A DNA stretch of 8,113 nucleotides, taken from the IMG/VR virus record IMGVR_UViG_2693429779_000008. One strand, given 5' to 3'. This document shows positions 3,004-7,289 of this stretch, piece after piece. The position numbers and the translations under genes were made by a program. Positions within the stretch are counted from its first letter, which is position 1. Every line of letters starts with the position of its first letter. The stretch is from a virus. Lineage: Duplodnaviria > Heunggongvirae > Uroviricota > Caudoviricetes. The notes beneath the pieces were generated by a model, which was given only the letters and a program-made list of their open reading frames with translations, did no database searches and was not told the DNA's origin.

Positions 3004-3357
3004 TTGATTGAGTGTTTGTTATACGGTCTAATGGTTTTTTCAGCATTAAATATTTATCATTCATATGGTGTGGGTAGAGTGAATATTGATGAGGCGTCGG
3101 GGTGTTTCATCCTTAGGCAGCGTATTGATATAGTCAATGCAGCACGAGCAAAGGCCTTCAGCCGTTTGACAGTTTTGTTCTGTACTCCTGATCGTCTTTC
3201 GGGAAGAGACGTTATTATTCTGAATAGTGATGCTATACAGAGGGTTTGCGATGAGTTCATGGTTGCTAATTCAGAATTATTTGCTCTTGTTCAGGAGTAC
3301 AACAGAATAGCCAGGACCTGTGGTATGGATGAACTTCGGATTACTCATCTGGGGTAG
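3004..3357 (+). CDS. Hypothetical protein, no recognisable family; start codon uncertain
   Basis: Open frame from TTG at 3004 to TAG at 3355-3357; alternative in-frame starts are ATG 3031 and GTG 3070/3079, none with a convincing Shine-Dalgarno. Preceded by an AT-rich promoter-like stretch (2940-3003). Coding status is unproven. Confidence 0.3.
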   Translation: MIECLLYGLMVFSALNIYHSYGVGRVNIDEASGCFILRQRIDIVNAARAKAFSRLTVLFCTPDRLSGRDVIILNSDAIQRVCDEFMVANSELFALVQEYNRIARTCGMDELRITHLG

Positions 3358-3553
3358 ATACATATCTGGATTATCACCTGTTACGGTAAAAAGTGATTGC
3401 TTACTGTTTTTGTGAATGGCATTGCAGCAGCCGGATAATGTCAGTGCTGGCTGACGGTGTGCTGGTGGCGGGTGTGGTGGTTGTTGCTTTCCCGTTGCTG
3501 AAAAAGAAAACGCCAGACTGTTAGCCGGGTATCAGTTAGCGGGAGAAATTTTT

Positions 3554-3739
3554 AAATACTTCACAATTCAGGCGGTTGACTGTTGTCTGGTTTGCGGGGA
3601 GTTTGTTAAAAGAAACTGGCATGGTGAATCCCCCTGTGCGGAGGGGCAATCAGCGAGTAGGTATATGGGATAATCGCGGATTCAGGTGCTGGTACTGAAT
3701 TCACCGGGAGGCACCCGGCACCATGCAATGGCACATAGC
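3554..3739 (+). repeat. Module copy B (hexamer is TTGACT in this copy)
   Basis: Aligns base-for-base with copy A apart from a few substitutions near the 5' end. Followed by the type-2 terminator. Confidence 0.8.
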
Positions 3740-3749
3740 GCCACTCTCC

Positions 3750-3774
3750 AGCCCCTCTCCGGAGGGGCTGTTTA
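3750..3774 (+). terminator. Rho-independent terminator (type 2)
   Basis: 8-bp stem AGCCCCTC/GAGGGGCT with TCCG loop, then GTTTATATT. Confidence 0.6.
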
Positions 3775-3804
3775 TATTGATTTTGTCAGATGTGAGTAAA
3801 CTCC

Positions 3805-4140
3805 TTATGGACTTTGTTGTTTTAGTCCATAAGGACATATTTGCAGAGTGCAACGGTTATTAAAGCATTCATTCAATACGTTATCTGTATTTGTAGGGCA
3901 TTCCTGGCTATTTTTGATTGAATTCCAGAATGTTTTATTGAATGGTACTACGTTGTAAATGGTTACAGGTAGCACTTTGTTATTGAGCATGATGCCTGTG
4001 TGAGTCAGTGTAAATATACTTTCAGGAGGTAAGAAAGCATCCGATTGATACCAGATTATTAATTTTATTTTACTCCATATGACTGAAAAAGATATTCCGC
4101 ATGATGGCTGGATAACTGTATCAATCACAATCCACTTCAT
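3805..4140 (-). CDS. Hypothetical protein, 111 aa, with four cysteines in the C-terminal part, encoded antisense to the late operon in an AT-rich island
   Basis: On the minus strand the ATG at 4140-4138 is preceded by AAGGAAACTAA (good Shine-Dalgarno spacing). Composition is visibly AT-rich compared with flanking phage DNA. A perfect 12-bp inverted repeat (3802-3813 / 3824-3835) overlaps the stop codon. No family recognised. Confidence 0.45.
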
Positions 4141-4400
4141 TTAGTTTCCTTGTTTATGCCTTGCTGGTGATGTTCTGAAAAGTATAAATGATATTTTTGA
4201 ATGTAAACCATAGAGCAGAATTATTTTTCTGATGTTGTTTATTGTTTATTTAAATGCAGGGTGGTTTATATCTCGTCTTGTAGTTTATCCATGCATATCT
4301 GCTTGATAATCAGGTTTTTATTTAAGGTATGGTTTTGTGTTTTTTCTGTATTACATGTCAGGTATTTTAAAGAATTATTTTTCAGATGGTGGAAAGAACC

Positions 4401-4502
4401 ATGGCATTTAAACACTATGATGTTGTCAGGGCGGCGCCGCCGTCAGATCTTGCGGAAAAGCTGACACATAAACTGAAAGAGGGCTGGCAGCCATTTTTTT
4501 AA
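4401..4502 (+). pseudogene. Truncated paralog of the nanS-p 5' end (first 33 codons of the DUF1737-type N-terminus, then stop)
   Basis: Encodes MAFKHYDVVRAAPPSDLAEKLTHKLKEGWQPFF-stop; the full gene at 5436 begins MAFKHYDVVRAASPSDLAKRLTQKLKEGWQPFG. That is 5 differences in 33 residues. The frame ends where module copy C begins (stop TAA at 4500-4502 made by the junction). Confidence 0.65.
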
Positions 4503-4686
4503 ATGTCTCACAATTCAGACGGTTGACAGTTGTCTGTTTTGCGGGGAGTTTGTTAAAAGAAACTGGCATGGTGAATCCCCCTGTGCGGAGGGGCAATCAG
4601 CGAGTAGGTATATGGGATAATCGCGGATTCAGGTGCTGGTACTGAATTCACCGGGAGGCACCCGGCATCATGCAATGGCACATAGC
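4501..4686 (+). repeat. Module copy C
   Basis: Near-identical to copy A (TTGACA at 4523-4528, same hairpins). Followed by the type-2 terminator. Confidence 0.8.
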
Positions 4687-4696
4687 GCCACTCTCC

Positions 4697-4720
4697 AGCC
4701 CTCTCCGGAGGGGCTTTTCT
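4697..4720 (+). terminator. Rho-independent terminator (type 2, one-base deletion variant)
   Basis: AGCCCTC-TCCG-GAGGGGCT followed by TTTTCT. Confidence 0.5.
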
Positions 4721-4909
4721 GTGCCGGATACATCACAGTTTCTGGAACCTTAGGTACTACAGTATCAGTCAGGGTGCTATATTTTCAGATGTGATGAAAG
4801 CCTGTCAGCAGGCAGGGCGTATCGGAAATGACCCAGTAGAGAAAACGTTGACTCAGATACCGGTGCTGAGTTACCGGGAAACCGGCATCACATGACCGCT
4901 ATCCTTCCA

Positions 4910-4936
4910 GGCCCATCCGCTCCGGTGGGCCTTTTT
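4910..4936 (+). terminator. Rho-independent terminator
   Basis: 8-bp stem GGCCCATC/GGTGGGCC (one G-U pair) with 6-nt loop, then TTTTT (4932-4936). Confidence 0.55.
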
Positions 4937-4960
4937 ACTGCAGAAAACAGGTTCCCCGTT

Positions 4961-5184
4961 AAATGCTATGTTGCTCACAATTCAGTAAGTTGACAGTTGC
5001 CTGTCAGACTGGGCATTTGTTAAAAAAATTTCGCATGGTGAATCCCCCTGAGCGGAGGGGCGACTGGTGACGGTATAATCTCTGATTATCAAAACGAGAA
5101 TGACGCGGGTTTAGTGGCACCGGGCTGAACTCACCGGGAGGCACCCGGCACCATGTGCATGATGATACAGATACGCGGCTTTAG
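4961..5184 (+). repeat. Module copy D (diverged homolog of A/B/C)
   Basis: Shares CTCACAATTCAG, TTGACAGTTG, TTTGTTAAAA, CATGGTGAATCCCCCTG-GCGGAGGGG, a TATAAT at the position of TATATG in A-C, and CTCACCGGGAGGCACCCGGCA. Intervening segments differ and include insertions. Confidence 0.7.
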
Positions 5185-5204
5185 CCCCTCTCCGGAGGGG
5201 TTTT
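5185..5204 (+). terminator. Rho-independent terminator (type 2 variant) closing copy D
   Basis: Stem CCCCTC/GAGGGG with TCCG loop, then TTTTCTTGTG. An A7 run plus the GCCCGCG/CGCGGGC hairpin immediately downstream (5214-5242) would act as a terminator for the opposite strand. Confidence 0.55.
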
Positions 5205-5435
5205 CTTGTGGGCAAAAAAAGCCCGCGCTGGGAGACGCGGGCGGCAAGGAATAAACAATAAAACGTGAAGTAATATTTCAGCTGGCGAATAATACCCCAT
5301 AGTAATCACTCTGCGCAACTGCGCGGTCTTTTTCGAATTGCGGGCTGTCGTCTCTCTTCTGCCATTGTCCTGTAACTTCCGGACTTCAGCCCGCTCCTTA
5401 TTTTACTCACAATATTATCCCGGCCGGGAGGATTC

Positions 5436-7289
5436 ATGGCATTTAAACACTATGACGTGGTCAGGGCGGCATCGCCGTCAGACCTTGCGAAACGACTGAC
5501 ACAAAAACTGAAGGAGGGCTGGCAGCCGTTTGGTAGTCCGGTGGCCATAACCCCTTATACCCTGATGCAGGCGATTGCAGCAGAAGGTGATGTGGTCGTC
5601 AGTGGTGCAACTGAGCCGGAGTGGTACTACGTCATCGTACTGGCCGGGCAATCCAATGCCATGGCTTACGGTGAAGGTCTTCCGCTTCCGGATTCATACG
5701 ATGCGCCCCATCCGCGCATTAAGCAACTGGCCCGTCGTAACACAGTGACTCCCGGTGGTGAAGTATGCGTATTTAACGACATCATTCCTGCTGACCATTG
5801 TCTGCATGATGTTCAGGATATGAGTACGATTAACCATCCCCGGGCTGACCTGAGCAAAGGGCAGTACGGCTGTGTCGGACAGGGCTTACATATTGCCAAA
5901 AAACTGCTTCCGTATATCCCTAATAATGCGGGGATCCTGCTGGTACCATGCTGTTGTGGTGGTTCGGCATTCACCCAGGGCACGGAGGGGACATTCAGCG
6001 AGTCCACGGGGGCCAGTCAGGATTCGGCTCGCTGGGGAGTGGGTAAGCCGTTATATCAGGATCTGCTTTTCCGCACGAAGGCAGCATTGCAGAAAAACCC
6101 GAAAAACGTTTTGCTGGCGATATGCTGGATGCAGGGGGAATTCGATATGACGAATGCCAGTTACGCCCAGCAGCCAGCAGCATTTCTTGCAATGGTACAG
6201 CAGTTCCGTGCTGACCTTGCCGGGCTGGCGGCGCAGTGTCACGGTGGAAGTCCGGCATCAGTCCCCTGGATTTGTGGCGACACGACATACGCGTGGAAAC
6301 AAGAACACGGTACGCAATATGAAGTGGTATATGGTGCATATAAAGGTAAAGAATCCCAGCAGATTTATTTTGTTCCCTTTATGACCGATGGTAGCGGAGT
6401 TAATACACCGACAAACAACCCGTCAGAAGATCCTGATATTGCCGGGTCTGGTTATTACGGTTCGGCATCCCGAACGAACAAAAACTGGGTATCATCAAAT
6501 CGCCCGACGCATTTCAGCTCATGGGCGCGTCGTGGCATTATTCCCGATCGTATGGCAACTGCTATTCTGAACGTAGCCGGTCGCACCTTAGCCTTCATTA
6601 GTGGTAAGGCACCGGAAATCAAACCCTCGCCCGGCGGCGACACGCCATCGGGGCCGTCTGAAGATGCATCCATACGCACAATCTCCCTGTTGCCGACAGC
6701 CGGAGACGCTGCTGCGCAGGGCTGGAGCATTAAGAATGGCGGAGTTCAGTTGTCAGATGGTGTATTTAAGATCACCAAGCAGAGCAATAAAGCCTGGTCC
6801 CTGACGCGCCCGGTGGATGACGCAGTCTCCCTGCTGACACGGGGTGGCAGACTGAGCTGTAAGTTTCGACTGTCAGGCGCACTGACCAACAACCAGTTCG
6901 GTCTGGGAATTTATCTGTATACCGATGTAGCGTTACCTGACGTCGTGGCGATGACCGGGACTGGTAACCCGTTCCTGATGTCGTTCTTCACCCAGACCAC
7001 AGACGGCAAACTGAATCTGATGCATCACAAGAAAGCAGGAAACACAAAGTTGGGCGAGTTCGGGAATTACAGTAACGACTGGCTGACGCTGGAGCTGGTG
7101 TTCACCGCCGGCAGTGCCACGGTTACTCCGAAACTGAATGGAGTGGCTGGCCCGGCATTCCAGGTCATAAAAGACAGTCTGACACTGGGGCTGAATGCGC
7201 TGACGCTGACGGATATTACCAAAAATGCAGCGTATGGCGTTGAGATAGAAAGTCTGGTGCTGGAGATAAATGCACCGGCATCATCATAA
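5436..7289 (+). CDS. nanS-p: Prophage NanS-p-type sialate O-acetylesterase (DUF1737 N-terminus, SGNH/SASA esterase core, C-terminal domain of unknown function), 617 aa
   Basis: ATG at 5436 is preceded by GGGAGG. The GQSNA motif carries the SGNH-family catalytic serine. The N-terminus matches the DUF1737 pattern of Stx-prophage esterases that normally lie between the stx/tRNA region and the lysis genes. Recognition-based; no search was run. Confidence 0.9.
   Translation: MAFKHYDVVRAASPSDLAKRLTQKLKEGWQPFGSPVAITPYTLMQAIAAEGDVVVSGATEPEWYYVIVLAGQSNAMAYGEGLPLPDSYDAPHPRIKQLARRNTVTPGGEVCVFNDIIPADHCLHDVQDMSTINHPRADLSKGQYGCVGQGLHIAKKLLPYIPNNAGILLVPCCCGGSAFTQGTEGTFSESTGASQDSARWGVGKPLYQDLLFRTKAALQKNPKNVLLAICWMQGEFDMTNASYAQQPAAFLAMVQQFRADLAGLAAQCHGGSPASVPWICGDTTYAWKQEHGTQYEVVYGAYKGKESQQIYFVPFMTDGSGVNTPTNNPSEDPDIAGSGYYGSASRTNKNWVSSNRPTHFSSWARRGIIPDRMATAILNVAGRTLAFISGKAPEIKPSPGGDTPSGPSEDASIRTISLLPTAGDAAAQGWSIKNGGVQLSDGVFKITKQSNKAWSLTRPVDDAVSLLTRGGRLSCKFRLSGALTNNQFGLGIYLYTDVALPDVVAMTGTGNPFLMSFFTQTTDGKLNLMHHKKAGNTKLGEFGNYSNDWLTLELVFTAGSATVTPKLNGVAGPAFQVIKDSLTLGLNALTLTDITKNAAYGVEIESLVLEINAPASS

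Follow-up and report, generated by a model that had tools for sequence, protein, structure and literature searches.

An AT-rich island in a lambdoid prophage carries iraL, encoding an anti-adaptor predicted to protect RpoS

We analysed an 8,113-nucleotide stretch of viral DNA (hereafter the window; Caudoviricetes, IMG/VR record IMGVR_UViG_2693429779_000008) and conclude that its AT-rich island is almost certainly the iraL cassette of a lambdoid prophage, the product of which would shield RpoS by sequestering RssB. Judged by its sequence, the minus-strand gene of the island is iraL, a prophage gene that is already named, mapped and functionally characterised, and this copy adds no new biology. 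The sole point that goes beyond the literature we searched is the conservation of a cysteine-containing tail at the C-terminus of the protein.

Identity of the antisense gene

The gene spans 3805-4140 of the minus strand, with 111 codons and a stop. It starts with ATG, and an AAGGA Shine-Dalgarno sequence (4151-4147) lies 6 nt ahead of the start. The protein has cysteines at positions 81, 92, 97 and 102, plus one at position 14. The first-pass annotation, made from the letters alone, had placed the open reading frame, its Shine-Dalgarno sequence and the four C-terminal cysteines just where we find them. It had not recognised the protein, which is in fact IraL, an RssB anti-adaptor of the IraM family that is 99% identical to the CFT073 protein.

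This assignment is supported by several searches. Against the NCBIfam model for the IraM family (NF007393, PRK09919) the ORF scores 162 bits versus a cutoff of 121, with residues 1-110 aligned to positions 1-113 of the 114-position model. A search of PDB sequences matched IraM (8twd_A, E 6e-31). The local copy of Pfam yielded no match to the ORF, whether at E 0.01 or with the threshold relaxed to E 10. PDB matches to the zinc-binding proteins DPH3/Kti11 were discarded: they are insignificant (E 0.24-0.8) and align residues 9-47, away from the cysteine tail.

Compared with IraL of CFT073 (WP_000871291.1), the window protein is identical at 110 of 111 positions, the sole change being L74S. At the nucleotide level the coding sequence matches at 334 of 336 positions (99.4%), where the iraL subtype has been defined by at least 95% identity over the whole CDS (PMC4045071). 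The subtype definition further asks that the promoter and the DNA upstream be at least 96% identical to CFT073 and include the mapped transcription start sequence; here 131 of 133 positions agree over 4141-4273, and the only differences in the promoter and untranslated region are at 4143 and 4174. Agreement with the CFT073 iraL locus extends over the island as a whole (605 of 611 positions identical) and over the longer stretch 3560-4494 (928 of 935). The gene is not a K-12-type iraM, for which 95% or more identity to the K-12 gene and PhoP-dependent upstream DNA of the K-12 type are required: its protein is 61% identical to K-12 IraM, and the upstream DNA cannot be aligned.

Codon 74 (window position 3920) encodes Ser in the window allele and Leu or Ile in every other aligned member of the family, and it stands beside RssB-contact residue 75. 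The S74 form is the common one in Shigella: the exact window protein is recorded as a multispecies protein of that genus on no fewer than 999 contigs. On sequence grounds, we infer that the S74 allele and its promoter would behave like the CFT073 version.

Naming of the family is inconsistent among resources. PGAP and NCBIfam label IraL as "anti-adapter protein IraM," PHROGs lists phrog_4407 as having unknown function, and none of the models in the local Pfam picks up the protein.

Promoter, untranslated region and 3' end

The published 5'RACE sequence of iraL, ACATCACCAGCAAGGCATAAACAAGGAAAC, maps to the minus strand of the window at 4173-4144 with no mismatch over 30 nt (PMC4045071). The transcription start taken from that experiment, position 4173, gives a 5' untranslated region of 33 nt (4141-4173, minus strand). 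Positioned relative to this mapped start is a sigma-70 promoter at 4181-4207 (minus strand), with a -10 element TATACT at 4186-4181 and a -35-like element TTTACA at 4207-4202. Both hexamers are unchanged relative to CFT073. The JJ1886 copy has a 1-nt deletion at 4203, inside the -35-like element.

A candidate promoter had earlier been proposed on the plus strand, in the form of TTGCTG and TATAAA separated by 16 bp (4161-4188). The string is present, and it is probably no promoter. Its two halves match 3 of 6 and 5 of 6 consensus positions and fail a consensus scan; across 3500-4600 we counted two promoter-like sites versus 3.1 expected from shuffled sequence, so the proposal is without statistical support. 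The string also overlaps the 5' untranslated region and the -10 element of iraL. As a promoter for iraL itself it was rejected, because the mapped start lies on the minus strand and the motif is no better than chance.

A related possibility is that 4141-4400 is a divergent promoter region, which also holds a rightward promoter from which nanS-p would be expressed without Q antitermination. The GC content of the region is 30%, near-consensus hexamers are numerous in it, and in strain AF39 the same 260 bp lie directly upstream of an intact nanS-p. We nonetheless consider a rightward promoter unlikely. The TTGCTG/TATAAA pair fails the scan, promoter-like sites are not enriched over shuffles, and no mapped transcription start supports transcription in this direction. 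In the window, moreover, the downstream gene is a stump of 33 codons, and a promoter reading into it would serve no purpose.

We also searched for the PhoP box (KGTTTA-N5-KGTTTA, up to two mismatches) as a sign that iraL might be under PhoP control like iraM. Counts were at or below shuffle expectation in the window and at the K-12 iraM locus alike, and the search is therefore uninformative. One PhoP-box-like repeat, TGTTTA-TTGTT-TATTTA, occurs on the plus strand at 4236-4252 with one mismatch, 63-79 nt upstream of the iraL transcription start; it is not above chance.

At the other end of the gene, the perfect 12-bp inverted repeat reported over the stop codon is indeed there. On the minus strand it forms a stem with a 10-nt loop (3802-3835) that overlaps the last codons and the stop of iraL, its arms TCCTTATGGACT (3802-3813) and AGTCCATAAGGA (3824-3835) pairing perfectly. 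The RNA is predicted to fold at -17.5 kcal/mol (z = -4.1), which none of 200 shuffled sequences equalled, and a perfect 12-nt inverted repeat appeared in none of 100 shuffles matched to local composition. No U-tract follows the hairpin. Its role may be to stabilise the 3' end of iraL or to serve as a weak terminator.

The hairpin is identical in the three aligned iraL loci (window, CFT073 and JJ1886), and its second arm encodes QQSP, a C-terminal extension specific to IraL. As a conserved structure it was rejected: in the 75%-identical homologue of Stx prophages three of the 12 pairs are broken and none is compensated, and it is absent from E. albertii and from K-12 iraM. By these sequence comparisons, the hairpin is not a feature of the family.

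Predicted structure and function

The iraL gene of CFT073 lies on the potB prophage and was described as a paralogue of iraM (Hryckowian et al. 2014, mBio, PMC4045071). In that study IraL copurified with RssB, and sigma-S had a half-life of about 5 min in log-phase CFT073 versus about 2.5 min in an iraL deletion (PMC4045071). A Shigella sonnei iraL deletion mutant likewise had lower sigma-S in log phase (PMC4045071).

We modelled the window protein with AlphaFold2 (AF2) from an alignment of 44 sequences; an earlier model from 16 close sequences was poor (pLDDT 59.9). In the 44-sequence model the core, residues 1-78, has pLDDT values of 83-96, and the tail has values of 47-56. Foldseek superimposed the model on IraM (8twd_A) with a target TM-score of 0.90 and an rmsd of 1.3 A over 78 columns (E 1e-8). 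The residues through which IraM contacts RssB (PMC10844676) are identical in IraL in 10 of 14 cases, and the other four are conservative changes. In cluster I, I4, I6, W22, K26 and I42 are all identical. In cluster II, C14, F18 and W30 are identical and the changes are T13S and L75I; in cluster III, I61 and Y62 are identical and the changes are H63N and I64V.

We infer from these comparisons that the geometry of IraL-RssB binding resembles that in the IraM-RssB crystal structure. [quoted passage not shown]

The proposed mechanism is as follows. In a lysogen, iraL would be transcribed leftward from its own sigma-70 promoter (start at 4173), independently of the late operon that it opposes. The PmrD-like core of the protein, a beta-barrel plus helix formed by residues 1-78, would bind RssB, a response-regulator-like adaptor. 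RssB held by IraL would not deliver sigma-S (RpoS) to ClpXP. RpoS would then last longer, and the general stress regulon would be raised even in growing cells. A prophage gene may in this way raise the general stress response of its host during growth, a capacity that has been connected with niche adaptation in uropathogenic E. coli and in Shigella.

The resemblance of the core to PmrD raises the question of whether the protein could instead be a PmrD-like connector acting on another response regulator (e.g., PmrA/BasR), and not a stabiliser of RpoS. After IraM, the next-best superpositions of the model are on PmrD structures (4hn7, 2jso and 2rqx; TM 0.70-0.73). A profile-profile comparison with K-12 PmrD using hhalign returned a probability of 89% (E 2e-6), and precomputed Pfam labels from a later model version assign homologues to PF11183 (PmrD). 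Even so, this alternative is very improbable. Identity to PmrD is only about 14%, and the local Pfam PmrD model does not match the ORF even at E 10, while it gives K-12 PmrD 159 bits. IraL itself, with which the window protein shares 99% identity, copurifies with RssB and affects the stability of RpoS, and the window protein conserves the RssB-contact residues of IraM.

Still less probable is a toxin, a superinfection-exclusion factor or an anti-phage factor, for which the first-pass annotation had suggested toxicity and phage-exclusion assays: the prophage moron slot, expression independent of phage genes and the listing of phrog_4407 as a family of unknown function would fit it, but the IraL family has a defined biochemical partner, the published deletion and complementation phenotypes concern RpoS stability only, nothing in that work points to toxicity or exclusion, and no link to toxins or defence was found in NCBIfam, Pfam, PDB, Foldseek or literature searches. 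Anti-adaptor activity toward RssB is the function that we predict for the protein.

Conservation of the cysteine tail

The tail of IraL follows the pattern C-P-x9-C-x4-5-C-x4-C-P-x-G, with its cysteines at C81, C92, C97 and C102 (codons 81-111; window 3808-3900). Among 16 close relatives, C81, P82, C92, C97, C102, P103 and G105 are invariant, in contrast to the freely varying residues between them.

Searching 1.84 billion representatives with a profile returned 97 relatives, 48 of them at E <= 1e-10. When 54 sequences in the full-length range were compared, 13 columns were conserved in at least 80% of them, the four cysteines included. Sequences without the four cysteines mostly diverge wholesale at the C-terminus, in a manner resembling a frameshift. 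Comparison of 44 intact members, some as little as 20% identical, left just four columns without any variation (M1, C81, C97 and C102); in the same IraM/IraL alignment P12, W30, W72, C92 and P103 are at least 90% conserved. Across the family, the tail cysteines are better conserved than the residues that contact RssB, and no other feature of the protein is conserved as well as the tail.

In structural work on IraM, residues 79-107 were removed and the tail was described as less conserved and flexible (PMC10844676). Neither that paper, nor its preprint, nor the other RssB papers that we searched discuss the cysteines of IraM or zinc. The AF2 model made with 44 sequences keeps the tail at low confidence, and an ordered cysteine module is neither supported nor refuted by it. 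Tentatively, and from conservation in the sequences, the tail (C81, C92, C97 and C102, with P82 and P103) might form a small Zn(Cys)4 or redox-sensitive module that sets the stability or activity of the anti-adaptor. If so, there would be a metal or oxidative input to the RssB/RpoS pathway, as yet undescribed.

The AT-rich island and its flanks

We delimited the iraL cassette at 3780-4390, between the end of an STnc100 element and the conserved start region of nanS-p. The left edge is set by the end of the Rfam STnc100 match (3779) and the right edge by the start of a repeat, D5, of which 4391-4465 matches 5426-5500. No Rfam family matched inside 3780-4400. The high AT content first noticed by eye was borne out, the cassette having a GC content of 0.322 (about 0.32 versus about 0.51 in the flanks). 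Broken down, the values are 0.345 for the coding sequence, 0.296 for the intergenic DNA at 4141-4400, 0.504 for the left flank and 0.516 for the right. Of all 611-nt segments of the sequence, the one beginning at 3771 is lowest in GC; outside the island GC reaches no lower than 0.401.

Of 5426 complete E. coli genomes, 1446 (about a quarter) contain a match of at least 90% identity to the 626-bp stretch that includes the cassette, and among the matches listed the gene is annotated as "anti-adapter protein IraM." As AT-rich prophage cargo that runs against the late operon and has its own promoter, the island fits the earlier suggestion of a horizontally acquired moron with its own regulation. 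The accompanying idea of insulation by terminators holds on one side. To the left, an STnc100 copy on the plus strand (3590-3779; RF02076, 132 bits versus a gathering score of 47) ends in an intrinsic terminator, a hairpin plus T-run that a terminator scan placed at 3749-3770 (plus strand); the same scan, run over 3500-4600, detected none on the right side of the gene.

Copies of STnc100, a prophage sRNA described as related to PasD sRNAs (2026 preprint), recur through the window. Four copies are strong (2417-2608, 3590-3779, 4537-4726 and 5004-5213; RF02076, 119-161 bits) and a fifth is weak (4765-4938), and three of the copies fall in a family of 206-nt direct repeats. The cassettes that they bracket are, in succession, tRNAs; the phrog_2873 gene and DUF3927; iraL with a stump of nanS-p; and nanS-p.

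The nanS-p relic previously proposed to the right of iraL was confirmed. It is a truncated gene on the plus strand (4401-4502) that retains the DUF1737 N-terminus, with 33 codons and then a stop (translation MAFKHYDVVRAAPPSDLAEKLTHKLKEGWQPFF, then stop), and its sequence can be aligned with the beginning of the intact gene at 5436. The truncation point coincides with the boundary with another STnc100 repeat unit, beyond which the second, intact nanS-p follows. Because the gene is cut at a repeat boundary, recombination between STnc100 copies is suggested. Elsewhere the cassette has different neighbours: in strain AF39 it adjoins an intact gene for a 617-aa esterase (nanS-p), and in CFT073 and JJ1886 it adjoins a DUF1737 pseudogene.

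Prophage context

The window represents the late-regulatory region of a lambdoid prophage. Its first features are the C-terminal part of the antiterminator Q (51-419) and a DNA methyltransferase gene (992-2050). Two tRNA blocks come next, followed by the several STnc100 copies, an intact nanS-p sialate O-acetylesterase gene (5436-7289), and genes for a holin and for a DUF1327 protein. When the whole window was compared with E. coli, even the best match spanned no more than 88% of its length. Together with the S74 allele, this makes Shigella a likely source of the window.

The gene order Q, tRNAs, DUF3927, STnc100, iraL (minus strand), nanS-p/DUF1737 and holin is common to CFT073, JJ1886, AF39 and phage vB_EcoS-640R1. 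At all the lambdoid prophage loci examined for placement (these four, two Stx prophages and E. albertii), the family gene has Q on one side and nanS-p with the lysis genes on the other, and it is oriented against late transcription. The E. albertii homologue, a protein that is 65% identical, shares this placement between Q and lysis.

Two Stx prophages of a single genome (GCA_039832115.1) encode a 75%-identical, 111-aa IraL-like protein antisense between stxB (87 aa) and nanS-p. The ORFs lie directly downstream of stxB, at 3206-3541 in one locus (L006) and 3173-3508 in the other (L007). In those prophages, a homologue of an RpoS stabiliser is thus immediately beside the Shiga toxin genes.

Other features of the region deserve mention. 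Part of the tRNA block recurs about 550 nt downstream: the first block (2091-2340) has an Ile2-type CAT tRNA, Arg-TCG and Arg-TCT, the second (2641-2893) has CAT and Arg-TCT only, and the repeats flanking the blocks are 91-94% identical. A second AT-rich patch (GC 0.39; 3004-3357, plus strand) holds an ORF of 117 aa that matches phrog_2873, of unknown function, from residue 10 (E 4e-70); PGAP annotates no gene at the matching position in CFT073 or AF39. The 43-aa ORF at 3393-3524 (plus strand) is the counterpart of a DUF3927 family protein annotated in CFT073; its match in PHROGs, phrog_1470, carries the description TciB-like inhibition of cell division or colicin resistance.

Comparison with known systems

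The closest known system is IraL of CFT073. It has the same promoter, transcription start region and 3' hairpin, and its place in the prophage is the same, with Q, tRNAs and STnc100 preceding it and DUF1737/nanS-p and the lysis genes following it. The window copy differs from it by L74S and by the single-base changes at 4143 and 4174. In the window, nanS-p has in addition been cut to 33 codons by an STnc100 repeat unit, and the prophage also carries the DNA methyltransferase and the duplicated tRNA block.

IraM (YcgW/ElbA) of K-12 is the RssB anti-adaptor of Mg2+ starvation, and its production depends on PhoP. It is homologous to the window protein (61%) and has the same fold; the RssB contacts are largely kept and the four-cysteine tail is shared. 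The DNA upstream of K-12 iraM is, however, unrelated to that of iraL, and K-12 IraM lacks both the four-residue QQSP extension and the 3' hairpin. In contrast to IraM, IraL acts in log phase (PMC4045071). The K-12 gene has been described as located on e14 (PMC4045071). In the MG1655 locus examined (L002, 6414-7004) we place iraM (1211680-1212003) just outside the RefSeq e14 boundary at 1211412, beyond the icdC pseudogene.

Homologues named IraM in Citrobacter, Salmonella, Enterobacter, Cronobacter, Kosakonia and others belong to the same family, are 20-54% identical and keep the cysteine tail. RssC of Salmonella is also of the IraL family, and its name did not appear among the relatives returned by the profile search.

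More distantly, PmrD is a PhoP-induced connector protein that protects phospho-PmrA. It shares the small beta-barrel-plus-helix fold with IraL at a remote sequence relationship, and both proteins bind the receiver domain of a response regulator. PmrD differs in its length (88 aa), in having no cysteine tail and in its target, PmrA, and it is encoded by a chromosomal gene, whereas IraL is prophage cargo.
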